UHGV virus genome: UHGV-0205834 | DNA length: 36,952 nucleotides | Source: a virus | Direction: 5' to 3' (one strand) | Shown: positions 1,618-35,486 of the stretch, piece after piece | How the letters are laid out: the number at the start of each line of letters is the position of its first letter | How positions within the stretch are numbered: the first letter of the stretch is position 1 | Program-made: the position numbers and the translations under genes | The notes under the pieces: model-generated | What the model saw: only the letters and a program-made list of their open reading frames with translations | Database searches by the model: none | Told to the model about the DNA's origin: nothing

Positions 1618-1714
1618 AATATAAACGCCTACCAGCCCAAAGCAAGCGTATAACTAAGGAGGTGATGCCAGCTATTTTAGTCCGAACACTTACCCGAGCG
1701 AAAGGACGAAAAAA

Positions 1715-2863
1715 ATGGCAACATTCGAACAATACAAAAAGAAAAACGGTGAAAAATTGTGGAAGTTTCAAACTTATTTGGGAGTAGATCCCTTGACTGG
1801 CAAACAAGTGAGAACTACACGAAGAGGTTTTAAAACAAAAAAAGAAGCTCAATTAGCGCTGACCAAATTACAATTGGAATACGAAAGTAATGGTCTAAAT
1901 AAGTCTAAAGAGTTAACTTTTCAAGAAGTATACGATCTATGGATTGTAAATTATGAGCAAACAGTAAAAGAAAGTTCTTTCGTTAAAACAAAAGAACAGT
2001 TTGCGAATCATATATTACCAGCATTTGGTGCTCTTAAAATCAACAAAATATCGATTGATATAGCTCAAAAGTTCGCTAATGAAAAGGTAAAAAAATTTGT
2101 GTTGTATAGAGAATTCATCAATAATGCTTCGCGTATATGTGATTATGCTATTAAATTAGGATATCTACAAGATAATCCTTTTAAAAAAATCACAGTTCCA
2201 AAAAGAAAGGTCTCTGTTCATGAAGAAGATACTTTAAACTTTTTTAATAAAGAAGAACTAGAAATCTTTTTGAAATCAGTAGAAAAGAAAAAAGATATTC
2301 GTATGTATTCTTTTTTTCGGACACTAGCCTTCACAGGGATGCGCGTAGGCGAGCTCTTAGCTCTCACATGGAAAGACATTGATTTTAACGATAATTATAT
2401 CAAGATAAATAAAACTCTCGCCAGAGGAAAAAATAGACGCCTTTATGTAGAGCAACCTAAAACCAAAAATTCTAAGCGAGATATACCAGTCGATGATGAA
2501 ACTATGAACATCTTGAAGAAATGGCGATTAGAACAAAGAAAATGGTTGTTAACATTGGGAATTAATACGTTAAGCAAAAATCAACTGGTATTTTCTAACC
2601 AGAAAAACGAATATCTCCAATTATCTAAGCCTCGTAAATGGTTAGAAGTGATTATCAAACAAAATAATCTTAAACGTATTACTATTCATGGTCTTAGACA
2701 TACACATGCTAGTTTACTTTTAGAAGCTGGTGCAAATATTAAGGACGTACAAGAACGTTTAGGCCACTCGTCTATTCAAATCACTATGGATTTATATATC
2801 CACATTACAGACAAACGAAAAGAAAAAACAGCAGCGCAATTCGCAAAATATATCGGTATTTAA
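1715..2863 (+). CDS. int: site-specific tyrosine integrase
   Basis: 382 aa. C-terminal catalytic region R...HGLRHTHASLL...LGHSSIQITMDLYIHI matches the R-H-R-Y tyrosine recombinase signature. attP-like repeats lie immediately downstream. Confidence 0.9.
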   Translation: MATFEQYKKKNGEKLWKFQTYLGVDPLTGKQVRTTRRGFKTKKEAQLALTKLQLEYESNGLNKSKELTFQEVYDLWIVNYEQTVKESSFVKTKEQFANHILPAFGALKINKISIDIAQKFANEKVKKFVLYREFINNASRICDYAIKLGYLQDNPFKKITVPKRKVSVHEEDTLNFFNKEELEIFLKSVEKKKDIRMYSFFRTLAFTGMRVGELLALTWKDIDFNDNYIKINKTLARGKNRRLYVEQPKTKNSKRDIPVDDETMNILKKWRLEQRKWLLTLGINTLSKNQLVFSNQKNEYLQLSKPRKWLEVIIKQNNLKRITIHGLRHTHASLLLEAGANIKDVQERLGHSSIQITMDLYIHITDKRKEKTAAQFAKYIGI

Positions 2864-2865
2864 GC

Positions 2866-3135
2866 AGAACGTATTCAAAGACGTATTCAAACAAAAAAAC
2901 AGAGGCGAAAACATTGCAAGCAAATGCCTGTATATCAATGTTTTCTCCTCTATTATGAAATGTTATATAAGGAAGGTACAGGATTTATATATGACTGGTA
3001 ATAGAAGAAAATTACTAGCATAGTTTAGCGATTTACCCTAATTTTTGCTTCTAGTTATAAAATATTAGCACTAACTAAATTTCAAAACGTAGTCAAAAAC
3101 GTATTTAAAATTGTAATCGGGTAAGTGTTCGAAAA
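2866..3135. other. putative attP: two tandem pairs of arm-type repeats AACGTA(T/G)T(C/T)AAA (2868-2892 and 3088-3111) flanking a ~195-bp AT-rich presumed core region
   Basis: Direct repeats ACGTATTCAAA at 2869-2879 and 2881-2891. AACGTAGTCAAA at 3088-3099 and AACGTATTTAAA at 3100-3111. Non-coding and directly 3' of int. Confidence 0.5.
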
Positions 3136-3165
3136 CTATTATTAAACTAGATTTATCTATGTACT

Positions 3166-3197
3166 TCCCCCTCAAACTTTGAGGGGCTATTTTTTAT
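3166..3197 (+). terminator. Rho-independent terminator (CCCCTCAAA..TTTGAGGGG + CTATTTTTTA)
   Basis: Perfect 8-9 bp GC-rich inverted repeat at 3167-3186 followed by a T-run at 3189-3196. Confidence 0.6.
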
Positions 3198-3368
3198 CGT
3201 TGCGGAATATTCAAGTACCAGCGTTTATCATGAAAATCTTGTGCTCCGCCTTTAGTGTTCCCTTCTGGATCATTCGTTGCACGCATCATGCATATATTTT
3301 TCTAATAGGCTAATTACGAATTTATTTTGTTATGATAAAATAAAATTTGTGAATTGGAAGGTGAAAGA

Positions 3369-3935
3369 ATGTCAGAGGAACAACATAAATTAATAAAAAC
3401 AGTAAATAATTTTTTACATTGGTATTTAGGTAAAGAATACACACCCAAAGATATCTTAGAATTAATCTTAACTATTGTAGCTATCGTTTTTGTAATATTT
3501 GGTTTTTTAAAAAACAAAACATACTATGAAGATGTGTCTCTAGAATTCTACTCTATAGATACGCAAGGAAAATATTTCCCTCAGAATATTTATGATGAAA
3601 TAGCATTAGATGAAAGTCCCACAAAAATTGTTCTAGTTTCCCCTGCAAACGTGCCCATGAAAGTTGACATCATGAAATTTAAAGATATGAAAAACGATAG
3701 TGAACTTATATATAAATCTATGGGTTACTCTAAAACTATTAAGCCTGGTGATGCACTAAAAATTGCCTATACAGAAAGTGAAGGGATTCCTAATTATCAA
3801 CTTCATATTTCAACAGAATATGGCGAAACAGATGTACCATTGATCTATAACGGAAGATACAACAATATAAATAAAACAAAAATAAAAGCTACTAGAAAAG
3901 TTATACCATATTTTTTAGACAAAATATTGAATTAA
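3369..3935 (+). CDS. membrane-anchored protein of unknown function (moron between attP and the lysis cassette)
   Basis: 188 aa from ATG 3369 (RBS AAGGTGA). The track ORF starts at 3354. One predicted TM helix (ILELILTIVAIVFVIFGFL) with a ~140-aa extracytoplasmic domain. Opposite strand to all structural genes, with its own terminator. Confidence 0.6.
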   Translation: MSEEQHKLIKTVNNFLHWYLGKEYTPKDILELILTIVAIVFVIFGFLKNKTYYEDVSLEFYSIDTQGKYFPQNIYDEIALDESPTKIVLVSPANVPMKVDIMKFKDMKNDSELIYKSMGYSKTIKPGDALKIAYTESEGIPNYQLHISTEYGETDVPLIYNGRYNNINKTKIKATRKVIPYFLDKILN

Positions 3936-3944
3936 CTATGTACC

Positions 3945-3968
3945 GCCCCTCATCGAGGGGCTTTTTTT
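3945..3968 (+). terminator. Rho-independent terminator (GCCCCTC-ATC-GAGGGGC + T7), shared tail-to-tail with the endolysin gene
   Basis: Perfect 7-bp stem at 3945-3961, then TTTTTTT at 3962-3968. Confidence 0.7.
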
Positions 3969-5244
3969 AATATGATAGTACTTGACCTGGATAAATCAAG
4001 TTAGGATTTGATAATCCATTGCGCTGTGCCAGCGCTTGATACGTTGTGCCTAACTTAGATGCGATTGATGATAAATTATCGCCTGATCGAACAGTGTATG
4101 TTCTAGTAACATTTGCTATTCCGCTCACTTTTAGAACTTGTCCAGCATAGATCATATTCGGATTGCTTAGTCCATTTAACGAAGCAAGTGCTTGATACGT
4201 TGTTCCGTATTTTGCAGCAATCGAAGATAGTGTTTCTCCATATTGGACGATATGGGTTTGGATAGCAGCTGATGGTTTGTCTGGAACAGTTGTAGAATCT
4301 GGCAAGATTTCTACATTTGATTTTTCAATCCAAGATAAAATATTTGCAAGTAAAACTTTGTTGCCATTTATCTGTTGAACCTTGTAGCTTTCTCCTTTTA
4401 CCCATTGTGGGATTGCTTCTCCAGTTGCCCAGTTTTTCGCTGAAAAATTCACTTTCACAGTGTCGCCCACTTTAATTTCTGATTTTGGCGTATCATTAGC
4501 TTCTTCCCCTGCATCCGTTGCTGGAGTATCTGTTGCTGGTTTATCTGAACCTGTATAACCATTGTCTGTAATGCCAGTTAAATCGATATTACCATCTAAT
4601 CCACCAGCAATATAAGTTGAGGTAAATTGATAGATACCGATACCGTCCAGCGATGGAAAAATATTCCAGTTAGGAGTTAGCGTTACATTATAATCAGGAT
4701 AAGCAGAGATCCATAGCGAATCTGGAAACTCTTTGATTACTTGCTGATAATAAGCATTAGCTAATAAAAACGGCTTTCCTGAATAAAGCATTGGAGTATA
4801 GCCTGCTGCTTTAATTCGCCGCATACCATAAAGAATGGCATCCGTATTAGCTTGCTTATTAGAAGATGCCCCACCCTCGAAATCAATCGCTACAATTGAA
4901 CCTTTAGGCGTTTGAATCTTTGGCAAGAAATAATCCATCGTTTGTTTAGCAATTGCTGGGGAACCCCACACATCCCACCAAATATAGGTATGCGCTCGTT
5001 TGCCTTGCGCAATTGCAGAAGCAACTTGCGTGGAGTAGGTCCATTGGTCATATAAACCAGCTCCGTTATAACCACCAATTTGTGCAATAGCAAATTTATC
5101 ATGAGCGTACCCAAATCTTCCGTTCTCCCCTTGATAAATCGACCAATCCACACCCTGATCATTTTTTGCAGCAAACCCATTAATTGGCAATAAAAAAAGA
5201 GCCATTAATAGGCTCATCGCAGTAACAGTAATTTTCTTTTTCAT
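3967..5244 (-). CDS. endolysin: Sec signal peptide, GH25-like muramidase domain, SH3-like middle region, two C-terminal LysM repeats
   Basis: 425 aa. N-terminus MKKKITVTAMSLLMALFLLPINGFAA looks like a signal peptide. Two LysM-type repeats (…YGETLSSIAAKYGTTYQALASLNGLSNPNMIYAGQVLKV and …SGDNLSSIASKLGTTYQALAQRNGLSNPNLIYPGQVL). Last gene of the late operon. Confidence 0.75.
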   Translation of the reverse strand: MKKKITVTAMSLLMALFLLPINGFAAKNDQGVDWSIYQGENGRFGYAHDKFAIAQIGGYNGAGLYDQWTYSTQVASAIAQGKRAHTYIWWDVWGSPAIAKQTMDYFLPKIQTPKGSIVAIDFEGGASSNKQANTDAILYGMRRIKAAGYTPMLYSGKPFLLANAYYQQVIKEFPDSLWISAYPDYNVTLTPNWNIFPSLDGIGIYQFTSTYIAGGLDGNIDLTGITDNGYTGSDKPATDTPATDAGEEANDTPKSEIKVGDTVKVNFSAKNWATGEAIPQWVKGESYKVQQINGNKVLLANILSWIEKSNVEILPDSTTVPDKPSAAIQTHIVQYGETLSSIAAKYGTTYQALASLNGLSNPNMIYAGQVLKVSGIANVTRTYTVRSGDNLSSIASKLGTTYQALAQRNGLSNPNLIYPGQVLSY

Positions 5245-5254
5245 TTGTTTCCTC

Positions 5255-5452
5255 CTATTTTTTCAAATTATAAGCCGACACACCAGTGATAACGCCTAAA
5301 AATGTTGCTACTGCATTGATAGTGAGTACTGTCATATCTGTTCCATTCCATCCATACGCTTTTCCTAACGTGGCTACTAAAACAGATGCAGCTGGTAAAA
5401 CTGTTAAAACCGTCCATTTAATGATTTGATAATACTTATCTGGTAAAATCAT
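5255..5452 (-). CDS. holin (small, two-TM class)
   Basis: 65 aa with two hydrophobic segments and a charged C-terminus (NLKK). Directly upstream of the endolysin. Confidence 0.65.
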   Translation of the reverse strand: MILPDKYYQIIKWTVLTVLPAASVLVATLGKAYGWNGTDMTVLTINAVATFLGVITGVSAYNLKK

Positions 5453-5467
5453 TTCTTCTCACCTCCT

Positions 5468-5731
5468 TTACAATTTAGTCAAGAAATAGCCAATGATTGT
5501 AATGCCTAAGCCAATCATATAGCCCCAAGCCCATTTATTATTGTTCTTCATTTCCTTGATGTCTTCTGCATTGTTTAGTGCTACTGAATAGGCTTTATCT
5601 GCCAAATCTTTTGCACTATCAGCCTTTTCTCTAAGTGATTCGTAGTTGTCTAATTTTGTTTCAATTCTTACTAATCTCTCCACAACGTCTTGGAGCGCTT
5701 CTTCTTTCATGTTCCACCAACTTTCCAACAA
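5468..5731 (-). CDS. xhlA: XhlA-like haemolysin/lysis-accessory protein
   Basis: N-terminal coiled coil plus a single C-terminal TM (WAWGYMIGLGITIIGYFLTKL). The real start is probably ATG at 5710, since the track start is a TTG. Sits in the XkdX-XhlA-holin-lysin arrangement known from Firmicutes phages. Confidence 0.6.
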   Translation of the reverse strand: MLESWWNMKEEALQDVVERLVRIETKLDNYESLREKADSAKDLADKAYSVALNNAEDIKEMKNNNKWAWGYMIGLGITIIGYFLTKL

Positions 5732-5736
5732 AAAAA

Positions 5737-5754
5737 CGCATCACTTAAGATGCG
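5737..5754 (-). terminator. hairpin CGCATC-N6-GATGCG followed on the - strand by T7 (attenuator/terminator-like) just upstream of xhlA
   Basis: 6-bp stem. The A-run at 5730-5736 on + is a U-run on -. Overlaps the stop codon of the small XkdX-like ORF. Confidence 0.3.
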
Positions 5755-5882
5755 CTCTCTTCTTTGCTAATGATTTTATCTGCTTCTTCGTCTGTAATGC
5801 ATAGTGGAACGAATAGTCGAACTTGATCGTCAGTAAAACAGCCCCAATCATACATCATTTTCACATCGCTAAAACTAAACAT
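5745..5882 (-). CDS. XkdX-family small phage protein (not in ORF track, 45 aa)
   Basis: ATG at 5882, RBS AGGGAGGTGAG 6 nt upstream. Protein MFSFSDVKMMYDWGCFTDDQVRLFVPLCITDEEADKIISKEESAS fits the XkdX pattern (W-G-x-T-DDQV-x-FV-x-ITDEE-x-KI). Upstream of xhlA. Confidence 0.5.
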   Translation of the reverse strand: MFSFSDVKMMYDWGCFTDDQVRLFVPLCITDEEADKIISKEESAS

Positions 5883-5883
5883 A

Positions 5884-6339
5884 CTACTCACCTCCCTTTG
5901 AAGCTGGATTTAGTTGCTCTTTAATTTCTGAAATGTCTTTGCTATTTTGTAACGAAGCAAGCATCATTTTTGAATTGATTTGTGCTAAACTATCCGCTTT
6001 TTCTTTCAATGCAGTATTTTCCTGTTTAATTGCTACATCGCTTAGCATGAGTTTGGCATTGATCTGTTTTAAATCGCCGTTCTCATTTTCTAACGACTCA
6101 TACATTGCTTTGAGATTGTTTAAATCGTTGTGATCTAGTGCGTTCGCTAAAATAATCCATTGATTCAATTTAGGATCAAACATTTGATCGTCGATTGTTA
6201 ACGGTTCGCCATCAGCTCGAACCCCTTCAAGTGGAGGCTGATCTGTGTAAGGAACGGATACAAGCATATCGTCCAATACTTTTCCTGCGTACTCTCCGCC
6301 AGTACGTCCATATTTCCAAATGTTTTTCATTCGTTTCAC
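5884..6339 (-). CDS. hypothetical tail-module protein with coiled-coil C-terminus (XkdW-like position)
   Basis: 151 aa, between the tail fibre and the XkdX-like gene. Confidence 0.4.
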   Translation of the reverse strand: MKRMKNIWKYGRTGGEYAGKVLDDMLVSVPYTDQPPLEGVRADGEPLTIDDQMFDPKLNQWIILANALDHNDLNNLKAMYESLENENGDLKQINAKLMLSDVAIKQENTALKEKADSLAQINSKMMLASLQNSKDISEIKEQLNPASKGGE

Positions 6340-6341
6340 TC

Positions 6342-8507
6342 CTAGTCTATATAGTATTGAATTGGTGCTAAAAACAAGTTGACTGTTCCCCTAAATGAAG
6401 GTAGACCGCAAACGCCGTTCGGTCGGATATAAGCCATCCCGCCATTGTCTAAAGTATTGTTACTTTGTGGTGGTAACAAGAATTGATACTCATAATTATC
6501 AGTTGGATTACTTGGTCTAAATCCTTCTGGAATCGTACAAAAATCTTGTGTACTTAGCGTGCTACCTTTTAATGATCCACGGAACATCACTAGTTTTCCA
6601 ATTCTCCTGATTTGTCCCTGTTTATTCCAAGAGTGGCCGTTGATCGCTGTTAGATTTACCCATCCGGTATCTTCTGGAACTGTAGCAACTTCTTTACCTG
6701 CAATCTGCAACCCATCTTCAAAGTTTTTTAAACCTTCAACTGACTGTGGTTCGGTCAAACTAACCGTATTATTCAAGCCTTTTTCAGTATATTCAGGCTT
6801 GATGTCCCAACTGTAATCATTCGGATTGTTGCTGTCTTTCAATCCTTCACCAAAGTATTTATATTCACTAATATTTGGGGTTCGGGTGTCTCCTTTTTCA
6901 ATTTTTAACCAGTTTATGGTGCATGAACCTAAAGAAGTTTTTGGGCTTTGTTGAAGGTATACCGCTTTTGTGTTGTCCCCTAGCTGAGTTATTGAGACAG
7001 TGGCGACCCATGTATCAACCAATTCTTCAACTGGTTTAAAGTCACCGAATTGGTGTTGAGCTAAATAAACCCGAATTTTTTGTGAGCCAGGCTTAGTCGC
7101 TCCTATCGTCACAGTATAAGTTTCACCTAAAATGAAATCCTCTAATGCATTTTTTGCATAAATTCCCTCGCTACTACGTGTGATCGGAAACTTAACTGCA
7201 GGATCGGCAATGTTCTCGTTAGGATATTCGCGGCACATGTTATAAGGTTCTGCTAATAAGTTAGGTTGATGTGGTGTGGCTGTTGAACCACGTTCAAGTT
7301 TAATATTTTCGATTAAAACCGTTCCAACAAATGGGTCTATTGATGCTGTATTAATTGTGAAATACATTCTATCGAAAATTGATGGATCGATTATCGAACT
7401 TGAATTTGCTGTAATAAATATTTTCGTCTTTTTACCGATTTGTGCCTCTTTAGCCGTTAATCTTAATATGGTTGTTTCGGTAGGACTTATCCTATAACTT
7501 AACTTTAAATTCTCTAGTTTACCCGTGTATCCCTCAGAAACAGTAACATCTGCACTTAATGTATATTGAGTATTTGGTAATAAAACTGGCATATTTGTTG
7601 TATATTCTAAATAAGTATCCTCATTAGTTTTAGTAAAATTTATTTTTAAGCCATTCCCAACATCTTCCACAGTAACACCAGACTGCTTATTAAAACCCTT
7701 AGCTTTTAAAGCAGGCATTAAATTCGGATTCCCGCTATAATCATAGTTCCCGAAGTCGATGCTGTTACTGTACATTTTCTTCAGCTTGCCGAGATCGCCG
7801 ATTTGCTGATTGGTTTGATTCATCTTGTCTTCAACTGCTTTAAGATTGTTTTGTGCCGATGTAACGTTTTGAGAAACGGTATCAATCTTAGTTTGAGTAG
7901 CTTGTAGTTGCTCTGTTACCTCGTCAACAGTTTGATCAATTGCTTGTGTGGCTCCCTGTACAAATTCATTTATTTGTTGGTTTGCCTTTTCAATCGTAGA
8001 ATCCACATTTGTTAATGCTGCGTTAACAGCATCTGTCGCCTCTTGTTTGACCCCATCAAGTAGTTGTTGAAAGTCCTTAAAATAATATTCTCCATTCAAT
8101 TGAACATCGCCATCAATGATAGATTTCTCAATATTAAAAGTAAACGCCAAATTGTCCGTATGACTACCATCTGGAAAATCAATATAAACATTGGCATCAA
8201 CTTTACCCTCGTAAGAAAGTAACATGTCAGGAATCCGGTATTTTACAATCCCTTGCATGTAGCTTTCAGTAATGATCTGATTATCAAAAATTGGGAACTC
8301 CTTTTTCTCTTCCCCTTGATAGATGTGCATAAAAAGACGAACAGTCGCATCGATTAAATCGGTCGGACTTCCGTCTTGATTTTCAATATTAAATTGTAAA
8401 ACACCAGCATTTTTATCATAAGATTTAAAAGTAAAGCCTGTAATCTTGGTGGCACGACTAACTGGTTCTGTAGGTACGGTGATCTCACCAACTTTTCTGT
8501 CTGCCAA
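6342..8507 (-). CDS. tail fibre / baseplate upper protein (BppU-like N-terminus, central coiled coil, C-terminal receptor-binding region)
   Basis: 721 aa. Long heptad-rich segment (…LTNVDSTIEKANQQINEFVQGATQAIDQTVDEVTEQLQATQTKIDTVSQNV…). Position after the Tal/tail proteins. Confidence 0.65.
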   Translation of the reverse strand: MADRKVGEITVPTEPVSRATKITGFTFKSYDKNAGVLQFNIENQDGSPTDLIDATVRLFMHIYQGEEKKEFPIFDNQIITESYMQGIVKYRIPDMLLSYEGKVDANVYIDFPDGSHTDNLAFTFNIEKSIIDGDVQLNGEYYFKDFQQLLDGVKQEATDAVNAALTNVDSTIEKANQQINEFVQGATQAIDQTVDEVTEQLQATQTKIDTVSQNVTSAQNNLKAVEDKMNQTNQQIGDLGKLKKMYSNSIDFGNYDYSGNPNLMPALKAKGFNKQSGVTVEDVGNGLKINFTKTNEDTYLEYTTNMPVLLPNTQYTLSADVTVSEGYTGKLENLKLSYRISPTETTILRLTAKEAQIGKKTKIFITANSSSIIDPSIFDRMYFTINTASIDPFVGTVLIENIKLERGSTATPHQPNLLAEPYNMCREYPNENIADPAVKFPITRSSEGIYAKNALEDFILGETYTVTIGATKPGSQKIRVYLAQHQFGDFKPVEELVDTWVATVSITQLGDNTKAVYLQQSPKTSLGSCTINWLKIEKGDTRTPNISEYKYFGEGLKDSNNPNDYSWDIKPEYTEKGLNNTVSLTEPQSVEGLKNFEDGLQIAGKEVATVPEDTGWVNLTAINGHSWNKQGQIRRIGKLVMFRGSLKGSTLSTQDFCTIPEGFRPSNPTDNYEYQFLLPPQSNNTLDNGGMAYIRPNGVCGLPSFRGTVNLFLAPIQYYID

Positions 8508-8522
8508 ATCAATCCCTCCTTC

Positions 8523-9281
8523 CTACTTAACGCCTTCTATCTTGATGATTTGAATTTCTGCGTTTGTATTTTTGTGGTAATTCATATTTTCAGTGATTGC
8601 TACTTGGGCGGAACGAACGATCTTATAGCTTGTATCCGTCACACGTTCTAATTTCAACTCATACATTTCCATACCGCCTGCATCGTCATATAAGTTAGTG
8701 AACATGACAACTGGCCCAGTCACGTTATTTGCTTCGTACACCTGACCGCCCCAACCTTGAATATGAATGCGGACGGAACTGTAGTGTTTCATGCTATCTT
8801 TTAAGTCTATCGTCGTACCCACGCCATGTTTTTCGCCTTTGAATAGCTCGAAGGTTGTCACAACTTTTCGGAAACCCGGGCTATTATAACCGTTGTCATC
8901 GTTATGCGTACGTGCGATATAGATATTTCCACCGTAACCGTCCGAAGCCCAAAGCAGTTTCCGTTTATTGTGTTCTTGCATAACACCTAGTAACATGATT
9001 GAACCATCGCCAAACATCGTGATTTGTCCGTTTTTGAACCATTGATTAGTGGTAGCGTAAAAGCCCGGTGGAACGTCGTACACGTTAGTATACTTCCAGC
9101 CTAGCTCATTATCCTTCAAAGCAATACCACGCGCGTTCATTGCGATTTCAGGCGTACAAAAACCGGCATTTAACGGTGTAGCATCGACATGCGCTTGTTG
9201 CGGCGTACCATCGAAATGAATTGCTAATTGTTGTAAAATCCACTTGACAGATTCTTGCAATTTTTTAATTTCTTTTTCCAC
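8523..9281 (-). CDS. hypothetical tail/baseplate protein
   Basis: 252-aa ORF in the tail module, no recognisable motif. Confidence 0.45.
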   Translation of the reverse strand: MEKEIKKLQESVKWILQQLAIHFDGTPQQAHVDATPLNAGFCTPEIAMNARGIALKDNELGWKYTNVYDVPPGFYATTNQWFKNGQITMFGDGSIMLLGVMQEHNKRKLLWASDGYGGNIYIARTHNDDNGYNSPGFRKVVTTFELFKGEKHGVGTTIDLKDSMKHYSSVRIHIQGWGGQVYEANNVTGPVVMFTNLYDDAGGMEMYELKLERVTDTSYKIVRSAQVAITENMNYHKNTNAEIQIIKIEGVK

Positions 9282-9293
9282 TGATTAAACCTC

Positions 9294-11039: not shown

Positions 11040-11050
11040 GAATATCCCTC

Positions 11051-26039: not shown

Positions 26040-26125
26040 TTTATGTACTAGACAGTAGCTATCGAAAGATAATAAGAAGATGTTTTATTTTTTGTATTTG
26101 CTACTGTCCAATCAAAGCAATAGAA

Positions 26126-28233: not shown

Positions 28234-28433
28234 TTTTTTCTCTCTTTCCTAGTCACAATCATCGGTTCTGGCATAATCTGATCATCCTTTAGCAATGCAT
28301 CAGGATATTTTTTTCTTAGCTTCTTATTATTCGTATATGTTTTAAGCAACCATTGGCTTGCTTCACTCTTGCTTTCACCGGAAAAATAAATTTTCCCTGT
28401 TTGAATGCCTGCAAGTTGAATCATCATTTCCAC
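28230..28433 (-). CDS. hypothetical protein
   Basis: 67-aa ORF with stop-start overlap to the downstream gene. Tightly packed early operon. Confidence 0.4.
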   Translation of the reverse strand: MEMMIQLAGIQTGKIYFSGESKSEASQWLLKTYTNNKKLRKKYPDALLKDDQIMPEPMIVTRKERKK

Positions 28434-28434
28434 C

Positions 28435-28623
28435 TCAAATTAAATTTTTTTCTGATAAATGGAGCAAAAGCAATCCGACATCAAGAATCTTTTGATCCAT
28501 TATTTCAGCTACTTTGCTCGGCTTAACTCCTTGAGAAAAGAGCAAGCGTGCTTGCTCTATCTCTTCGTGAGTCCAAATAAATTTGGCTTCCTCAAGGATA
28601 ATTACTGGATCAGTTGCTCTCAT
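28435..28623 (-). CDS. hypothetical small protein
   Basis: 62-aa ORF packed between neighbours. Confidence 0.35.
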   Translation of the reverse strand: MRATDPVIILEEAKFIWTHEEIEQARLLFSQGVKPSKVAEIMDQKILDVGLLLLHLSEKNLI

Positions 28624-29195
28624 TGTTCCTCTGGAAAAATGATGTCGTCCTTATGTTTGGACCAGCTATCTGCATATGGAGCAAAGTATTGTCTAGCTAA
28701 TTCGATTTGATCAATTAAAGCAGTCTCTGATAATTCATGATCTGCAGCAATTTCATTCATACTGTCGCCTTCATCTAAACGGATAAGAACGTCTCGAATA
28801 TTTACGGTGACATTTTCTGGTAGTTGTAATGTCGTTGCTGTTTTAATAAATTCATCAATTGTTTCTTTTGATACTAGGATAGTTACATTTTCAACTTCTT
28901 CTACGCCATCGCCGACATCAAGTGAAGTCTGCTCTTCTTTGAGCATTTCGATTGTGCCATCTGAATTCACAACATATTCAATATTTGGTTTCTTCGTTTG
29001 CTTGTTTACTGGCACTGTGTATTCGATTGTTTCTGGTTGAATTACTACAGTCACAGTTGAGCCAAGAAATTCAGTTAAATTTTCAGTACTACCTCTCAAT
29101 GATCCGTTGCTAACAACTAGTAATACTTCTGTGTTCCCATTTGATTTTGATGTTACTTTCTTTAATTCTGGTCTGAAATTCACCTGTTTTGTCAT
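28620..29195 (-). CDS. hypothetical protein with C-terminal HTH-like segment
   Basis: 191 aa. C-terminal …NIRDVLIRLDEGDSMNEIAADHELSETALIDQIELAR resembles a sigma-region-4 type HTH. Confidence 0.4.
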   Translation of the reverse strand: MTKQVNFRPELKKVTSKSNGNTEVLLVVSNGSLRGSTENLTEFLGSTVTVVIQPETIEYTVPVNKQTKKPNIEYVVNSDGTIEMLKEEQTSLDVGDGVEEVENVTILVSKETIDEFIKTATTLQLPENVTVNIRDVLIRLDEGDSMNEIAADHELSETALIDQIELARQYFAPYADSWSKHKDDIIFPEEQ

Positions 29196-29196
29196 T

Positions 29197-29652
29197 TTAT
29201 TTTCCCTCCATTAATTTCTTTTTTCTTCGTTCCGTTTGTCTTTTCCGCTGCTGTCTTGCTGATTCAAAGCAGTCCATTTCAATAAACTTATTGATTTTTG
29301 AATCAAACTTAGCAAATGTCACTGGAAAGCCATATCGATGAGCAAACATCTTCATTTTGAGCATAGAGATTGCATCTTGATAACCTTTGACATCAATCAC
29401 TTTTTTCACTTGGCCATTCTCATAAATCACAAAATCAGCTCGATAATAAATCGGTGCAATCTTACGATCATTGCATAGATACCCTTCTTGCAGCAGAACA
29501 TTTTCTTGCATGGCACAGTAAGTTTCAGATAATGGCATAAAACTCATACCGTTTCGTTTTAACTTCATGTAATAACGAGCTTCTGCTTTAGAATCAAAAG
29601 TGATGCCGTCTACTTCGTGCTTTTTGTTTCCGTATTTGCTTCTTGTTGCCAT
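29197..29652 (-). CDS. DUF1064-like phage protein (putative nuclease fold)
   Basis: 151 aa. N-terminal SKYGNKKHEVDGITFDSKAEARYY and …YRADFVIYENG…IDVKG motifs, as in phage proteins commonly found beside DnaC-like genes. Confidence 0.45.
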   Translation of the reverse strand: MATRSKYGNKKHEVDGITFDSKAEARYYMKLKRNGMSFMPLSETYCAMQENVLLQEGYLCNDRKIAPIYYRADFVIYENGQVKKVIDVKGYQDAISMLKMKMFAHRYGFPVTFAKFDSKINKFIEMDCFESARQQRKRQTERRKKKLMEGK

Positions 29653-29816
29653 TTGCTATGCTCCTTCTTTAGTCTTTCGAGTCTTTCTTTCGAACGTCGT
29701 CCATTGTCATTGCATATTGGACAAGGTTCACAGGTTGACCATCCAAGTGATGTCTTATACCAAATAACTGTTTCATCGTTGCATTTTAAACAAGTCATTT
29801 TGCACCTCTCATCCAT
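29610..29816 (-). CDS. small Cys-rich (zinc-ribbon-like) protein
   Basis: 68 aa with CLKCN…CEPCPIC. Confidence 0.35.
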   Translation of the reverse strand: MDERCKMTCLKCNDETVIWYKTSLGWSTCEPCPICNDNGRRSKERLERLKKEHSKWQQEANTETKSTK

Positions 29817-30037
29817 GCTTGGTTACTTTTCGGACAACAACACTCTTTTTTCACTGGCTTTGTCTTAGGTTTTGAAAATCGGCTTTTGGGTTTAATAACT
29901 TCGACTACTTCGCCGCCACAAACACTTGCAACAAGGTCAGCCTCTTCTTTAGTCGTGTGGTGTTTAGCAAACTCGACACTGGCTTCTCCTCGTCCTCGGC
30001 TATCTAAGTAGCACATTTTTTTCACTACAAAGGTCAA
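29795..30037 (-). CDS. hypothetical small protein
   Basis: 80-aa ORF overlapping neighbours by 4-22 nt. Confidence 0.35.
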   Translation of the reverse strand: MTFVVKKMCYLDSRGRGEASVEFAKHHTTKEEADLVASVCGGEVVEVIKPKSRFSKPKTKPVKKECCCPKSNQAWMRGAK

Positions 30038-30888
30038 ACTGGATTCCTCCTTTTGTCTGTTGTTGTTTTGAATACGGCTATGTTTCCTTTTGTCCCGTTC
30101 ATTACACGAGAGAACACTCGCTCGCCGTATGCGTGTTTTAATTGCTTTGATGATAAATTGGTCGTGAATATCGTAGCTTTGTTTAGACGAGCTTCTGTGA
30201 GTGATGTGAGAACATCGACATCGTATAGTGTTGCTTGATTGTTTTCTTCCATTCGACCTAGCTCCGCACCTAAATCATCAATCACCACAAAATCCGTCTT
30301 TTTTATTTCAGCCATCAACGATCCTGTCACAGCTTTTCTTGCTTCTGGATCATTCATTGCAAACTTCAATTGCTCTAATAATTCTCGGTAGCTTATAAAT
30401 GAACAGGCAATTTTATAATTAGATGCCCTCATCACTTCTTTGATCACTGCAGCACCTAAATGAGTTTTTCCAGCTCCTGTTCTACCAGTAATAACCGCGT
30501 GAATCGTGCTACCACTTACGATTTTTTTAGCCCATTCTTGAGCCATTCCTTTTATTTGTGCTGTTTCCTGATCGACTACTTTGTATCCATCAAAATCAAA
30601 GGTCCATATGGCATCATCTGTAATCATTGAACTGTTAAGCATTCGATTGATAGCGTCCTTTTTCATTGCTTCATTCGCTTTTTGGATAGCTTCTTTTTGA
30701 TTTTTAGTTACCATTTCTCGATAACCACAAATCTTATTGATACATGTAGGACCGCAACGATCAGTACCATCTTTATTTTTTGTTTTCCAGATATACAATG
30801 GATCACCACATTTCGGGCAATTATGATCTGCTGTTTTTAATCCGCCGTAAGGTGCAGCCATTGCACTTAGTTTTTTATCCATTACCAA
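30034..30888 (-). CDS. DnaC/IstB-like helicase loader ATPase with N-terminal zinc finger
   Basis: 284 aa. Walker A ITGRTGAGKTHLGAAV. N-terminal CPKCG…C…C. Follows the replisome organizer. Confidence 0.8.
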   Translation of the reverse strand: MVMDKKLSAMAAPYGGLKTADHNCPKCGDPLYIWKTKNKDGTDRCGPTCINKICGYREMVTKNQKEAIQKANEAMKKDAINRMLNSSMITDDAIWTFDFDGYKVVDQETAQIKGMAQEWAKKIVSGSTIHAVITGRTGAGKTHLGAAVIKEVMRASNYKIACSFISYRELLEQLKFAMNDPEARKAVTGSLMAEIKKTDFVVIDDLGAELGRMEENNQATLYDVDVLTSLTEARLNKATIFTTNLSSKQLKHAYGERVFSRVMNGTKGNIAVFKTTTDKRRNPV

Positions 30889-31658
30889 TCCTCACCTGTT
30901 TCTGGTAACTCATCATTAGAAATATTTTGTTGCTTTCTTTTATTTTTTTGGATAGCCATCTTATCGAAATGCTTTCTTAAGCTAGTCGGTGATAAAATCA
31001 CTCCAGACCAAAAATCATTACTAGTAGCCCACACAATCATGTCTTGAACTTCTCTACCAGTTCGTTTGTCAGATTCAATTGTTAAACGAATCGTATTCGC
31101 CCATTTATCCAAATCAGGTTCTTTGATGTTTTGATTTTTTCGAATGAGTTTTAATAAAAGAATGGCTAATTTTTTATTTGGATCATCATCTGCGTACACG
31201 CGTTTTTTGCGTGTTGCGACATAATTATTATTCTTTTCATTCTTCTCATTCTTTTCATTCTTGTTTATGTTCAGTTCGTTGTCCTTTTGATGTTCAGCAC
31301 GTTGTTCAGTCTGTTGTTTTTTTTCTTCCGAAAACCCTTGATAAATGGCGTAGTTATTGACTTTATACGTTGTTCCATTTTTCCTGCTTTTTTCAATGCT
31401 TATCATGTCATCTTCAACAAGTAGGCTTAAAAATTTTCTGACAGTATTTCTACTTACTCCCCAACGTTCAGCCAATTTTTGTTCTGAAGTAATTCTTTCC
31501 CCAACATCAACTTTTTTAAATGAACCATTAAAAAGAATTTTCTTTTCTTTGTGGTTGGCCATTAGAATTAAATCAAGCCACCACTTTAGATATTGCGGAT
31601 TATCCCATATCCAATTTTCAGTTATAGAACGGTGAAGCTTGACCCATCCTTCAGCCAT
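30882..31658 (-). CDS. phage replisome organizer (DnaD-like) with embedded iteron origin
   Basis: 258 aa. N-terminus MAEGWVKLHRSITENWIWDNPQYLKWW is typical of replisome-organizer N-domains. Internal NEKNEKNEKN is encoded by the DNA iterons. Confidence 0.75.
   Translation of the reverse strand: MAEGWVKLHRSITENWIWDNPQYLKWWLDLILMANHKEKKILFNGSFKKVDVGERITSEQKLAERWGVSRNTVRKFLSLLVEDDMISIEKSRKNGTTYKVNNYAIYQGFSEEKKQQTEQRAEHQKDNELNINKNEKNEKNEKNNNYVATRKKRVYADDDPNKKLAILLLKLIRKNQNIKEPDLDKWANTIRLTIESDKRTGREVQDMIVWATSNDFWSGVILSPTSLRKHFDKMAIQKNKRKQQNISNDELPETGEDW
31230..31310. repeat. putative origin of replication: 4 tandem 9-bp iterons ATTCTT(T/C)TC (31230-31265) followed by 3 copies of TGTTCAG (31268, 31291, 31303)
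   Basis: Direct tandem repeats inside the replisome-organizer gene, an arrangement known for phage oris in Firmicutes siphoviruses. Confidence 0.5.
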
Positions 31659-31673
31659 ATAATCACCACCGTT

Positions 31674-32525
31674 CTATAAATCGTCCATACTAGTGAATCC
31701 AGTAATTGGAAGATTACCTCTACAGTACTCACATGTACCACAAGGCGTTGGTCTTTCTTCACCATTTTTCACTCTGACAATTCGCTCAATTTTTTCTTTT
31801 AATAAGACAAGTTCGTAATTCATTTTGTCTTGTTCAATGGTTATAAGTCTTGCTTCACTTGGTGTTTGTTTAGAAACTGCTGCAATAATCGGTGTAAACG
31901 TCTTTCCGTATTGCTGTAAAAGTAATTCCTGATATATAGCCATTTGAAGTACATATCCAAAATTAACTAGGAATGTTTCTCTTGATCCGTAATTTTCGTT
32001 CCATTTCCTCTCGTGCATGTCTTTGGTTGTTTTGATATCAACAAAATACTCATCCTCAACATTCAAGCAATCAATCTTGCCTTTCCATGTCGTTCCAAAT
32101 AGTTCCCCAGTCACAATCGTTTCCTTTTCCCCTTGATAGATGTTCATGAACACTTCTTCTTGTTTAAGTCGATCAATCATTTGTTCAGCGATCTGGAAAT
32201 CTTTCAATAATCCATAAGGCTTCCGACTAGAAAACATTTTGGATTTATTTTCTTCTTTGAACGCTTCATGTACTTCTTTTGACTCAAAATAAGAATGTAC
32301 GTAGTTTCCTACGAGCAAAGCTTTAGGATCCGACGTCGGTGCCCAATCGCCTTTCAACTTTGCTAAGGCTGCGGCTTCACATTTTAAAAAGGATTTATAT
32401 TGTGATGTTGACATGTACTGCCAGTCAGCTTCATTGGAGTAATAATTCTCATCAGAAAGGGTACTCATCGGCTTCAAATTCTGAGACATCATCTGCACCT
32501 TCCTCACGTCCGAAATCTGGAACAT
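31674..32525 (-). CDS. PD-(D/E)XK family nuclease with C-terminal Cys cluster (recombination exonuclease partner of RecT)
   Basis: 283 aa. …GKIDCLNVEDEYFVDIKTTKD… fits the D…(D/E)xK motif. C-terminal CGTCEYC. Adjacent to RecT. Confidence 0.6.
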   Translation of the reverse strand: MFQISDVRKVQMMSQNLKPMSTLSDENYYSNEADWQYMSTSQYKSFLKCEAAALAKLKGDWAPTSDPKALLVGNYVHSYFESKEVHEAFKEENKSKMFSSRKPYGLLKDFQIAEQMIDRLKQEEVFMNIYQGEKETIVTGELFGTTWKGKIDCLNVEDEYFVDIKTTKDMHERKWNENYGSRETFLVNFGYVLQMAIYQELLLQQYGKTFTPIIAAVSKQTPSEARLITIEQDKMNYELVLLKEKIERIVRVKNGEERPTPCGTCEYCRGNLPITGFTSMDDL

Positions 32526-33474
32526 CTAATAATTCTTCTTGAATCGGATCGGTATCCTCATTTTCGATTAAATGTGCTTGTTCTATTTCTGGATGGCCAG
32601 GTACGTCAGCAATTCGAGTTACTTCATTTTGGATATCATCTGGAATCACAATCGGATCTGGTTCTTTTTGTATTGGTTCAGTAATCTTTTTATTTGAAAA
32701 GAATTTTTGCTCGAGAGTAGCCACTTTTTCTGTTTGTGGCGTTACATCTTTCCGATTATTGTCAAATTCATTTTCTAACGTATCTTTTGCAGCTTGAACT
32801 AATAAATCGTTGTCGTTGCTTGTGTTGATTAATGCTTTAGCTGCCCGATTGATTACTGTCCGTTTAGCCATCTCTTCTGGAAATTCCTTTTGCGGTCCGG
32901 AACCTTTCATTTTTGACTTCGCCCAGCTTTGGTCAATTTGCTTTTTCGTCATGACTGTTGTGGTCTCTTTACCATTCGTTAACTTGATAACTACATAGGC
33001 TGCAATGATTTCATTGTCTAAATTCTCAAATTTTGTTTCATGCTTTTTGACAACCATGTTTGGTCCATCCATTGCAACTTCAAACTCATCACCTTGTCGA
33101 ACGACTACAGGCGTAATATCTGCCCCTCCAGTTACACGATCAAGGACCGCCATTGTTCCAAAATATGAACGCATTAGCTGAACTTTGTTTCCGTATTTAA
33201 TGAAATAGCATTGTTTTTTTGCTGGAGATAACCCTTGAATAACCATGTCTAAAAGTGCATTAGAAATGGAGGTTTTCATTTCTTGATTGTTTGCAGCCAT
33301 CTGCAACAAATTTCCTCCTGTATTATTAGTGAGTTCAAAAAAAGCACTTTTTAACGCATTTTGTGGACTGTAACCTGGTGGCATTTCTAAGCCCTGTTCT
33401 TGTAACCGACCAAGATTACTAATCACCTGCTCGTCTAATGAACGTTGTGTTGTTTGTGTTAAATCATTTGCCAT
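32452..33474 (-). CDS. recT: RecT-family single-strand annealing recombinase
   Basis: 340 aa. CYFIKYGNKVQLMRSYFG…VVVRQGDEFE resembles the conserved RecT core (CYLIPYGN…QIGYKG…VVYEGDEF). Acidic C-terminal tail. Confidence 0.7.
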   Translation of the reverse strand: MANDLTQTTQRSLDEQVISNLGRLQEQGLEMPPGYSPQNALKSAFFELTNNTGGNLLQMAANNQEMKTSISNALLDMVIQGLSPAKKQCYFIKYGNKVQLMRSYFGTMAVLDRVTGGADITPVVVRQGDEFEVAMDGPNMVVKKHETKFENLDNEIIAAYVVIKLTNGKETTTVMTKKQIDQSWAKSKMKGSGPQKEFPEEMAKRTVINRAAKALINTSNDNDLLVQAAKDTLENEFDNNRKDVTPQTEKVATLEQKFFSNKKITEPIQKEPDPIVIPDDIQNEVTRIADVPGHPEIEQAHLIENEDTDPIQEELLDVPDFGREEGADDVSEFEADEYPF

Positions 33475-33527
33475 ATTTTATTCTCCTTTATTTTTGCTAT
33501 ACTTATTTTGAAAGTGAGGCGATAAAA

Positions 33528-33878
33528 ATGTATAAATTGAAAAAAGACAACTATAATGAGCTTTCTGGAATATGTCGCTCAGTAATGCAGAACATTAAAG
33601 ATTTAGAGGAAGGTAGTAAAATGGACTTATTCGATCCTCGTATTAGTGATGAAGAATATCATTTATACTCATCTGTTCTTAAAAGCTATAACTCTTTAGG
33701 AAATCAGTTGCTCAGTAATTGGGAAACCTTAAAATTTTATGATATAGACGCTTTTTTCACTAAACTGAGTACGTATGTCGAATATTTGGATATATTCATC
33801 AAAGAACCAACTATAGAAAATCAGTTGAGATTAACGTCTATTTACGACAGTCTCGATAAGCTTAATCAGCGTATTTAA
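33528..33878 (+). CDS. hypothetical protein encoded antisense to the early operon (moron / candidate accessory gene)
   Basis: 116 aa from ATG 33528 (RBS AAGTGAGG). Only a 53-bp divergent gap to recT. Convergent with and overlapping the next - gene by 17 nt. Confidence 0.45.
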   Translation: MYKLKKDNYNELSGICRSVMQNIKDLEEGSKMDLFDPRISDEEYHLYSSVLKSYNSLGNQLLSNWETLKFYDIDAFFTKLSTYVEYLDIFIKEPTIENQLRLTSIYDSLDKLNQRI

Positions 33879-34461
33879 GATCATCACCTGCAAAAACAAT
33901 CAGAATCACATCTGTCAGAATTTGTCCGATATGAAAATTTTCATCGAATCCATCGGATGGAGTTTCTCTTCTAAATTCATTTAATTTTTTGTGTAAAAAA
34001 ACCAGTTCTTCTTCTTTCATTGAGGGGAGAAGTTCTTTTTTTGATGTCAGAATTTTATTGAAAAACTCTTTGCTTAGTTCCCGCAATTCTTTTTCTAATT
34101 TTCCAGGTAAATCAGGATCAATTGTTAACTCGGCACTTTCCAAATCTTCGCTTGTTACGTTGATATCTTCCTTTTTAGGTTCATTAATTGGTTCAGCTTG
34201 TTTTTCTTTAAATGGATTCTCTTTTTTCAATAAATTTTGATAAAAACTCTCATCTACCATAATGAGGGCCTTTCTCGTTTGGTCATAACTTGCCCCATTT
34301 TCTTTTACAACCTTTTTTATTTCCTTAAATAGACCTATTGTTTTTTCATCAGCGATGGTTGTTGGATTTCCTACAAGCGTACGGCCAGCGGTGAAGCCGT
34401 CTAAGTTTAATCGTTTAATATGATTCACAATATCTAAATCAATACGTGTACTTTTGCCCAT
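33862..34461 (-). CDS. hypothetical charged protein (early region)
   Basis: 199 aa, Lys/Glu-rich, no motif recognised. Confidence 0.45.
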   Translation of the reverse strand: MGKSTRIDLDIVNHIKRLNLDGFTAGRTLVGNPTTIADEKTIGLFKEIKKVVKENGASYDQTRKALIMVDESFYQNLLKKENPFKEKQAEPINEPKKEDINVTSEDLESAELTIDPDLPGKLEKELRELSKEFFNKILTSKKELLPSMKEEELVFLHKKLNEFRRETPSDGFDENFHIGQILTDVILIVFAGDDLKYAD

Positions 34462-34462
34462 C

Positions 34463-34666
34463 CTAAATTCCTCCTAGTTCAAATTTTGGATAATGTTGTT
34501 GCGCATACTCTAGAATGTCGTCTACTGGTACATAGCCTTCTTCTGTTAGATAGCAAGTATCACCTGGATACAACGGATTTCCTTGCCAATCAACTCCGAC
34601 AGGACTAGCTTCATTTGGTAGTTGCTGTCTGGCACCTAAAGAATCAAATTCTTTCATCGTGATCAC
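34463..34666 (-). CDS. hypothetical small protein
   Basis: 67 aa, start adjacent to the upstream gene's stop. Confidence 0.35.
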   Translation of the reverse strand: MITMKEFDSLGARQQLPNEASPVGVDWQGNPLYPGDTCYLTEEGYVPVDDILEYAQQHYPKFELGGI

Positions 34667-34891
34667 CTAAAATTCCCAAAATAATTTGACACTTCCATCT
34701 TCACATTGGATATTTGAAACACCTTCGCTTTCTAGTGCTGCTAGAAATGATGGTGTAAATCCTTTTGAACAAACAGTGCAACTCGTTTGTCCATAGCTTG
34801 CTGCAGTCAAGATTTTTTCTTGGATATCTTGTTGCGCTTTATTCATCATTACTTCGAATATTTCATCGCCTAGTCCTTTAACTGAGATCAT
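34667..34891 (-). CDS. hypothetical small protein
   Basis: 74 aa, abuts neighbours. Confidence 0.35.
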   Translation of the reverse strand: MISVKGLGDEIFEVMMNKAQQDIQEKILTAASYGQTSCTVCSKGFTPSFLAALESEGVSNIQCEDGSVKLFWEF

Positions 34892-35259
34892 CAGAATTTG
34901 ATACCACCTTTCTTGCGGTCCATTTTCTCTGCAAAACTAAAAAATTCCTGGCACCATTCCTCAAACTCAGCATCTTCTTCGTCAATGTCAAACATACATC
35001 TTAAAGCACTGTGAGTTTCGCAATTGCAATTATTCTTCCGCAAGTCATATTTTGTTTTTTCATATTGTTGGTAAACACTTAATGCAACCAAGCCATCGTT
35101 TCCAGCTTGAGCAAGAGCAACTTCCCCTTTTTCATCGACTACACTAACTGACATTCCTAGATCATCATTCGCACATTCATGCGCTAACTTTTTGATTAAA
35201 TTTTGGATTTTTTTATTCATTGTGATAAACTCTCCTTGATAGCTTATTTCTTTTGACAC
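34891..35259 (-). CDS. hypothetical protein with Cys/His cluster
   Basis: 122 aa. …CNCETHSALRC… and acidic C-terminus. Confidence 0.4.
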   Translation of the reverse strand: MSKEISYQGEFITMNKKIQNLIKKLAHECANDDLGMSVSVVDEKGEVALAQAGNDGLVALSVYQQYEKTKYDLRKNNCNCETHSALRCMFDIDEEDAEFEEWCQEFFSFAEKMDRKKGGIKF

Positions 35260-35261
35260 GA

Positions 35262-35474
35262 CTATGCTTGCCGGCGGTCGTGTCTTTTTTTAGTTTGATA
35301 TTCAGCTTCATCTAACCCTGCGAACATCCAAACGAGGTAGACAATTACCCCGATCAAAGCTTGTTTACTTCCCCAGACACTCAGCAGATAAATAATGATT
35401 GGCGCACTGAATACGATTGTTGTATTTAGTTTGTCCATAAATTCCCCTTCTTTACTGTCATTATTTCCGAACAC
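35262..35474 (-). CDS. small membrane protein
   Basis: 70 aa in the track. The likely start is Met13 at 35438, with RBS AAGGGG. Two hydrophobic helices. Confidence 0.4.
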   Translation of the reverse strand: MFGNNDSKEGEFMDKLNTTIVFSAPIIIYLLSVWGSKQALIGVIVYLVWMFAGLDEAEYQTKKRHDRRQA

Positions 35475-35486
35475 TTACCCGATATT

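Follow-up and report, generated by a model that had tools for sequence, protein, structure and literature searches.

A 15-mer present three times around the integrase module of a temperate siphophage, a candidate specificity element for RNA-level control of integrase translation

The 15-mer and the integrase leader

The virus genome UHGV-0205834, a stretch of 36,952 nucleotides (nt) that we call the window, meaning the whole of the DNA analysed, is the genome of a temperate siphophage in circularly permuted form, such that the end of the window joins its start. A preliminary description had drawn attention to a 15-mer, CGAACACTTACCCGA, said to occur three times in non-coding DNA, upstream of the integrase gene int, inverted on the far side of the phage attachment site attP, and just after an excisionase-like (Xis-like) gene. 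Our scan of the window agrees with this in number, position and orientation: there are exactly three exact matches (copies 1 to 3 below), all in non-coding DNA, and no fourth site is found even with up to three mismatches. Copies 1 and 3 extend to a common 17-mer, TCCGAACACTTACCCGA (1681-1697 and 35466-35482). We lean towards the reading that an RNA-RNA switch controls the translation of integrase and owes its specificity to this 15-mer: the motif, displayed in the loop of a hairpin in the int leader, would pair with its complement on other parts of the phage transcripts. The features concerned are, in order of position:

31-870, plus strand: cI, followed on the same strand by two small genes, int and attP.
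1177-1617, plus strand: a lipoprotein gene, with its stop at 1617, upstream of copy 1.
1656-1666, plus strand: block AAGGAGGTGAT, an 11-nt perfect complement of the 3' end of 16S ribosomal RNA (anti-16S block), at the head of the conserved int-leader block.
1661-1725, plus strand: the predicted int-leader hairpin, from the minimum free energy (MFE) fold.
1683-1697, plus strand: copy 1, between the lipoprotein stop (1617) and the int ATG (1715), ending 17 nt before that ATG.
1715-2863, plus strand: int, a tyrosine integrase with an arm-binding N-terminal domain (Pfam Phage_integrase, Phage_int_SAM_3 and Arm-DNA-bind_4).
2869-2891, plus strand: an arm-type pair, ACGTATTCAAA twice, in the attP arm beside int.
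2965-2986, plus strand: the attP core ATATAAGGAAGGTACAGGATTT, identical to the 3' end of the host tRNA-Ser(CGA).
3087-3109, plus strand: an arm-type pair, ACGTAGTCAAA and ACGTATTTAAA, in the far attP arm.
3117-3131, minus strand: copy 2, 6 nt past the second arm-type repeat pair (3087-3109).
3168-3196, plus strand: an intrinsic terminator, a CCCCTCAAA/TTTGAGGGG stem with a U-run, 36 nt past copy 2.
35262-35438, minus strand: a gene for a 58-amino-acid (aa) predicted membrane protein, the next early gene downstream of copy 3.
35468-35482, plus strand: copy 3, 4 nt past the Xis-like stop (35487), with ATG 35438 of the next gene about 30 nt further on.
35487-35747, minus strand: the Xis-like helix-turn-helix (HTH) gene, 86 aa from ATG 35747.
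35771-36526, minus strand: ant, in the early lytic operon between cro and the Xis-like gene.
36569-36817, minus strand: cro, in the early lytic operon.

The orientations of the copies make them complementary at the level of the transcripts, those crossing copies 2 and 3 being deduced from gene orientation. Copy 1 stands in the sense orientation in the 5' leader of int. Copy 2 is inverted, and a plus-strand RNA reading through from int would bear its complement, or anti-loop, UCGGGUAAGUGUUCG; the minus-strand early lytic transcript would likewise bear an anti-loop, UCGGGUAAGUGUUCGGA, between the Xis-like gene and the next gene. Copy 3 had been placed in the region of the ribosome-binding site (RBS) of that next gene, and lies instead upstream of it.

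Copy 1 lies within the predicted hairpin of the int leader. The fold of 1660-1725 (MFE -17.3 kcal/mol, z-score -3.0; a slightly different slice gives a z-score of -1.2) pairs 1666-1670 with 1716-1720, which holds the AUG, 1675-1678 with 1709-1712, and 1680-1683 with 1704-1707, which is the GGAC of the Shine-Dalgarno (SD) sequence, itself a weak one (AAAGGA at 1701-1706). The apical loop spans 1684-1703, and copy 1 fills this loop and the top of the 5' arm. When a 1542-nt model of the int transcript (1655-3196) is folded, the helix 1683-1697:3117-3131, joining copies 1 and 2, is part of the MFE structure with a mean pair probability of 0.98, and cofolding of the window leader with the RNA of copy 3 gives a difference in free energy (ddG) of -17.1 kcal/mol. 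Rfam 15 has no match at gathering score in the window, and only chance-level ones (E > 1) in 1550-3300.

On the far side of int, the attP core was placed by attR junctions and attL junctions (Enterococcus ratti and E. villorum prophages), by tRNA prediction and by core mapping, and the arm pattern ACGTADTYAAA has four matches in the window, all of them within attP, against 0.23 expected. Copies 1 and 2 do form an inverted pair that brackets int, as had been described; what they enclose is not only the left attP arm but the whole of attP with its core. By comparison of prophage junctions, integration puts copy 2 at the prophage end opposite int. The terminator at 3168-3196 is the only one predicted on the plus strand from int to the next gene, with none ahead of copy 2, and the local structure at copy 2 itself amounts to a weak 5-bp stem.

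As for the proteins encoded nearby, prophages of E. ratti and E. villorum have integrases 98-99% identical to Int. The Xis-like product matches phrog_66, 'excisionase and transcriptional regulator' (4e-10), its matches to MerR, HTH_17 and TIGR01764 being weak and below cut-off, and by this likeness it is a putative recombination directionality factor (RDF); a 99-aa version of the reading frame, from a TTG start at 35786, is probably too long. The 58-aa membrane protein has a full-length match to phrog_13092 (58/58 aa, 6e-41).

The head of the int leader carries some further signals. Block AAGGAGGTGAT also heads the int leader of the Streptococcus pyogenes prophage 315.4. Within it, an ATG at 1665 opens a 41-codon open reading frame (ORF) that runs through the motif out of frame with int; this ATG is unlikely to be a normal start because it lies only 2 nt after GGAGG. 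We rejected a coding explanation of the motif through this ORF, given the same 2-nt gap and the alignment of the true Int N-terminus with the downstream ATG. An A7 run at 1709-1715 keeps the ORF out of the int frame, and an A8 run in two relatives from IMG/VR (L052 and L058) restores the frame; in prophage 315.4 (L384, NC_004587, 1190-1260) the homologous upstream ATG is the annotated int start. Block AAGGAGGTGAT with ATG 1665 could be a ribosome standby site, an upstream ORF, or a slippery or phase-variable run.

The motif and its partners in related elements

In a scan of IMG/VR, sites with the same flanks as in the window were found in related prophage contigs for each of the three copies (34 of the copy-1 type, 33 of the copy-3 type and 13 of the copy-2 type), while 38 further matches were unrelated and at chance level. 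All three sites are found again in about 35 related Enterococcus prophage contigs. The contention that the copies do not owe their existence to chance is thus well founded. Among the IMG/VR relatives, the conserved block upstream of int starts at TAAGGAGGTGATGCC, and the flanks past copy 2 vary, which makes copy 2 the outer edge of a conserved int-attP module. In two contigs (L039 and L008, IMGVR_UViG_2558860910_000003 and IMGVR_UViG_2740892508_000005) what adjoins copy 2 on its core side is not the usual host junction but an attP-like arm that has diverged (..GTATCAATGTTTCTAGCTCTATTAAATTTACCTAAAAGGAAGGTACAGG); a different integration context or tandem elements may account for this.

The related genome ctekg1 has cI and cro 95-99% identical to those of the window but differs from it in the int module and in the module at 35292-35756; it is without the 15-mer, and no analogous repeat of its own was found either. 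Because ctekg1 has the same cI and cro and lacks both modules together with the motif, the motif is tied to the int and Xis-like modules and not to CI or Cro. An operator for CI or Cro was ruled out on the same evidence, the repeats in the cI-cro spacer being different as well. That spacer (36820-36952 and 1-30) contains repeated TTTATAC(T/A)(A/T)GTTTATAC-like words, unrelated to the 15-mer, which are probably the CI/Cro operators. The early region is otherwise 92-99% identical between the window and ctekg1, with a clean mosaic replacement at 35292-35756: in ctekg1 (L001, 3600-4806) an annotated endonuclease and two small genes take the place of the 5' end of the membrane-protein gene, copy 3 and the Xis-like gene of the window.

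The arrangement extends well beyond these close relatives, in which it keeps one sequence. At least 15 other lineages keep it with unrelated, lineage-specific motifs, among them S. pyogenes prophage 315.4, satellites of Streptococcus suis, Proteiniclasticum and Gemelliphila. In Proteiniclasticum (47% Int identity), CCCTCTGCCCGTGGGA is found at a distance of 24 nt upstream of int and a second time 2 nt past the stop of the divergent Xis-like gene, and a second Proteiniclasticum genome has a near-identical pair; a scan of IMG/VR with this motif returned single chance matches only. Gemelliphila carries a 30-mer pair. About a dozen further motifs came from a search of IMG/VR with an Int profile; most are at -30 to -38 from the int ATG, and every one of them has a direct repeat 1-5 kb upstream. 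In all, we count about 17 unrelated motifs, at -22 to -59 from that ATG and mostly at -30 to -39. Of 101 Int-related loci, 37% have a leader that takes part in an exact repeat of 15 nt or more, as against 2.4% of random 52-nt windows.

The geometry is as constant as the sequence is variable. The stop codon of a divergent Xis-like HTH gene of 59-108 aa is followed, 2-15 nt later, by the distal copy in 12 of 13 lineages. The exception is the S. suis satellites (Javan591/556, L247), in whose early operon it comes at an earlier point, 1.5 kb away from the Xis-like homologue. A third, inverted copy past attP was found in three other lineages (L253, the S. suis satellites L247/L251, and prophage 315.4); an int-strand terminator follows it in all three, and in L253 and 315.4 it adjoins arm-type repeats. 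The complementary orientation of the copies relative to the transcripts holds in all positive lineages. Together with the case of ctekg1, this recurrence of the three-site geometry upholds the proposal of a coupling, through the motif, between int, the far side of attP and the Xis-like gene of the early lytic operon. The Enterococcus phages EH-TP1, vB_ElaS_B1578 and VEsP-1 show no analogous repeat.

The leader structure recurs in the same way. The succession of an anti-SD arm, a loop with the motif and an SD arm was predicted in 14 of 15 lineages, compared with 6.6 expected from shuffled sequences (P = 4e-5), although the sequences themselves are unrelated, and leaders with a motif have a less accessible SD than those without one (P = 0.001), the motif-negative set including some relatives of positive families. 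In every lineage the identity between copies stops sharply on the SD side, and in five to six lineages, namely the window (3 nt), L097, L203, L247/L251 and L273, it reaches into the anti-SD arm; this one-sided extension fits an opening of the hairpin and not an occlusion of the RBS. Duplexes of leader and anti-loop have a ddG between -14 and -33 kcal/mol across lineages.

The most telling case for what recognizes the motif is a family of satellites in which Int is 99-100% identical (100% in the N-terminal domain) and the leader stem is identical, and in which two loops occur, A (CTGCCCCCGCACGGTAC) and B (CTGCCCCGCTCAAGG). The block change of CGCAC to GCTCAA that turns loop A into loop B is also present in the copy after the Xis-like gene. 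Loop A is associated with the Xis-like types x1, x2 and x3 and with at least five different repressors, and loop B with types x3 and x4; two further elements, L226 and L260, have the SYNTLYKYI helix region in common and carry unrelated motifs. The motif thus tracks only its own second copy, and this pattern is the signature of base pairing and speaks against Int, the Xis-like protein or the repressor as what recognizes it. Compensatory co-variation independent of the proteins, as in an antisense RNA-mRNA pair, is therefore seen in these relatives, along with the transcript directions that such a pair requires and a loop-accessible target at the translation initiation region. Pairing of RNA is favoured because the motif is hypervariable, decoupled from the proteins, and located in the loop of an RBS-sequestering hairpin. 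In the window's own family, a scan with the 5'-arm sequence of the window returned no loop variants. The satellites L226-L241 (IMG/VR, about 14-15 kb), whose Int is near-identical, have at least five unrelated master repressors and four Xis-like types, and the modular turnover between their two motif copies is very high.

A proposed switch on Int synthesis and its alternatives

In the model towards which we lean, the leader hairpin would pair the SD and AUG of int and leave the int mRNA poorly translated by default. No promoter of its own being predicted, int would probably be co-transcribed with the upstream lysogenic genes (cI and the lysogenic-conversion gene). While the genome is circular, the int mRNA would bear its own anti-loop (copy 2) near its 3' end, before the terminator, and pairing of the 5' and 3' regions in cis would open the leader, allowing Int to be made after infection. 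Integration would split attP and shift copy 2 by about 34 kb to the other end of the prophage, turning Int translation off; with neither source of anti-loop, the lysogen would keep Int silent. Upon induction, the early lytic transcript would provide an anti-loop in trans, right after the Xis-like gene, and Int would be made along with the excision factor.

Several points weigh against this model. Pairing in vivo, the transcripts and the activating sign are all inferred. The evidence from covariation and decoupling comes from relatives with about 36-47% Int identity, the family of the window being monomorphic, and several relatives with 44-46% Int identity are wholly without the feature. Whole satellite contigs of family A, of 14-15 kb, have two copies only, so that the component in cis at the 3' end is not universal; a scan for a third copy of satellite motif A gave only truncated copies of the distal type. 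The folding results have limits of their own: the z-scores of leader MFE are moderate across lineages (mean -1.35), and cofolding disallows pseudoknots and kissing complexes, which forces the stem open. In many lineages the motif lies wholly in the loop, and forcing it to be unpaired leaves the SD unfreed in the folding model; opening of the stem would therefore need helix strain, strand invasion or cleavage. Transitions between paired copies comprise about two that are compatible with G-U pairing versus six that are not, in a small and partly non-independent sample with several of them at duplex edges. Finally, no sigma-70-like promoter was predicted for int, for which read-through from upstream genes has to be assumed, and none of the three copies has a convincing sigma-70 promoter either.

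The serious rival, which we nonetheless consider unlikely, retains the pairing and reverses its sign or its direction. In its repressive version the anti-loop RNAs would turn int down, for example through cleavage of the duplex by RNase III, in the manner of lambda sib, a negative element past attP whose local RNase III hairpin destabilises the int mRNA. In its immunity version the loop, carried by an abundant cI-int lysogenic transcript, would pair with the early transcript after xis and block or terminate expression of the genes downstream, like P4 CI RNA or P1 c4, with copy 2 masking the loop while the genome is circular. All of the complementarity evidence counts equally for such schemes; a motif displayed in a loop is typical of antisense regulators, the distal copy is found 14-30 nt upstream of the start of the next early gene, near its RBS, and sib, which lies past attP, acts negatively. 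Yet we take the sign to be activating because the hairpin is off by default, which makes an additional negative regulator of int redundant; because the complementarity avoids the SD and the AUG and extends only into the anti-SD arm; and because a repressor in cis at copy 2, with no terminator ahead of it, would hit every int transcript of the circular genome and leave no route to Int for integration. The immunity version, for its part, leaves unexplained why the stem consistently pairs the int SD.

Less likely than pairing of the opposite sign, and rather improbable in our estimation, is a protein site at the DNA level, at which the Xis-like HTH protein (as RDF) or another early protein would bind the 15-mer. 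Binding at the far arm of attP would serve directionality, binding ahead of int would regulate that gene, and binding past xis would be autoregulatory. The preliminary description had thought of an operator of the Xis-like protein or of a site for a host factor. Some of the geometry invites this explanation, since copy 2 stands beside arm-type Int sites, as is usual for RDF sites, in the window, L253 and 315.4, copy 3 is tightly linked to the Xis-like gene in all but one of the 13 lineages, comparison with ctekg1 shows the int and Xis-like modules exchanged jointly, and the mismatches show no preference for G-U pairs. Control of int by an RDF has precedents as well, P2 Cox and P4 Vis being examples. 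In KplE1, TorI is an RDF that also regulates int, in this case intS (PMC2951348). The motif, however, follows neither the Xis-like protein nor Int nor the repressor in the satellite family, where an RDF site would be expected to co-vary with its RDF: motif A goes with three Xis-like types and motif B with one of the same three, the helix region common to L226 and L260 goes with unrelated motifs, and the distal copy of the S. suis satellites is 1.5 kb away from the Xis-like homologue. These observations speak against the operator as first conceived, and the hypervariability of the motif between lineages does the same for the host-factor site. Moreover, the copies are single at each place, asymmetric, perfectly identical and 12-30 nt long, unlike the degenerate tandem repeats of RDF sites, and neither the position in an SD-sequestering loop nor the one-sided extension of identity finds an explanation.

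That the repeats have no regulatory function at all, being recombination scars, module boundaries, sites kept by gene conversion, or arm-type or secondary recombination sites of Int, is very improbable: copy 2 and the copy 1 block do coincide with the edges of the conserved int-attP module, and recombination needs identical short repeats, but no inversion or deletion junctions occur among the approximately 35 relatives, the motif has no relation to either the attP core or the arm repeats, which are confined to attP, elements with either motif, A or B, have an identical Int, gene conversion is inefficient between repeats as short as 12-17 nt, and the independent recurrence of a fixed geometry in more than 15 lineages argues for selection. 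We accordingly ruled out the 15-mer as an attP core or secondary att site (the core being the 3' end of tRNA-Ser), as an arm-type site of Int (the 15-mer occurs once in attP and the arm repeats four times, and the Int N-terminal domain is 100% identical across motifs A and B), and as a substrate of inversion or deletion (there are no recombinant flanks in the relatives).

Some observations concern the genes on either side of the int-attP module. Between attP and the lysin gene lies a gene of 193 aa (3354-3935, plus strand), with terminators on either side (3168-3196 and 3945-3961), whose product has no Pfam or PHROG match and which looks like a moron, that is, lysogenic-conversion cargo. The lipoprotein gene (1177-1617) is flanked by strong hairpins at 1096-1117 and 1625-1649 that score, in a terminator scan, as minus-strand terminators and not as terminators for the strand of that gene.

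Relation to known systems and implications

Elements of the proposed RNA switch are familiar from other systems. As with lambda sib, copy 2 and the terminator are found past attP (core 2965-2986, copy 2 at 3117-3131), in the 3' part of the int read-through RNA, and are separated from int by integration. Sib, however, has no partner in the int 5' leader and no xis-linked copy, whereas the window combines a long-range 5'-3' complementarity of 15 nt with a copy acting in trans, in a logic that points to activation. An extended local hairpin of the sib type, overlapping the int terminator, is not present around copy 2, the terminator being a separate structure 36 nt further on.

Short complementary repeats, two or three of them in the transcripts of an operon, are also the hallmark of P4 CI RNA (seqA/seqB/seqC) and of c4 of P1/P7 acting on icd-ant; there too, complementarity alone sets the specificity and differs between similar elements, which may be compared with motifs A and B. 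Those systems control immunity or an antirepressor by premature termination or translational block and belong to Gram-negative hosts, whereas in the window the target is the int leader and one of the partners lies across attP. A hairpin of the 5' untranslated region that sequesters the SD, to be freed by an RNA pairing with its loop or 5' arm, recalls DsrA/RprA-rpoS and RNAIII-hla, and the IS200 tnpA leader likewise limits a recombinase by an SD-sequestering stem-loop and an antisense RNA. Unlike in DsrA/RprA and RNAIII, the activator would here be a segment of the xis-bearing early mRNA and of the 3' end of the int mRNA, with no dedicated small RNA gene, and activation is inferred. What the window has in common with RDF operators (P2 Cox boxes, P4 Vis, TorI-IntS) is the coupling of int to an excision factor and to att-arm sites, copy 2 being located beside arm sites; it departs from them in that the motif does not co-vary with the Xis-like protein and in that each site is a single, asymmetric and exact copy, where theirs are tandem and degenerate.

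The only earlier trace that we found is the GenBank record of phage T12 (NC_028700, L383, 1209-1229), which annotates a 'putative integrase regulatory element 1' just upstream of int; for this element the annotation is all that we found, and no paper. The T12 element is the 5' arm of an int-leader hairpin (GTATAAGAAA...TTTCTTGTAC) and is conserved in S. pyogenes phages, and the T12-type hairpin is common to several streptococcal prophages (also L243, L246 and L255). It differs in sequence from that of the window, and the parts of T12 that we examined yielded no second copy, be it distal or on the attP side. A search of the full-text literature, which included the motif strings, found no published description of the architecture. 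We rate the system as a new form of RNA-level control of int, to be set beside lambda sib.

The timing of Int synthesis in Gram-positive temperate phages and in satellites resembling phage-inducible chromosomal islands (PICI-like) is poorly understood. In their genomes the lysogenic transcript usually carries int after the repressor gene, and it has to be asked what keeps Int off in the lysogen and what turns it on for integration and excision. The model, if true, would provide a simple, protein-free answer and a positive counterpart to lambda sib. More tentatively, many temperate phages and satellites of Firmicutes may carry a programmable, RNA-only 'integration-state sensor', in which a hypervariable loop of the int leader must pair with its complement for Int to be synthesized. 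The complement would then be found at the 3' end of the same mRNA, available only where attP is unbroken, or on the xis-bearing early transcript, and the integrase would be made exactly when the element is circular or induced. Each element would have a private code of 12-30 nt, avoiding cross-talk with co-resident phages and satellites; the lineage-specific codes do suggest selection against such cross-talk. The carriers include medically relevant elements, namely the toxin-carrying S. pyogenes prophage 315.4, S. suis satellites and Enterococcus prophages, and the architecture could affect the stability of prophages and the mobility of toxin genes. The codes could also serve as orthogonal RNA switches, or to lock prophages in place.

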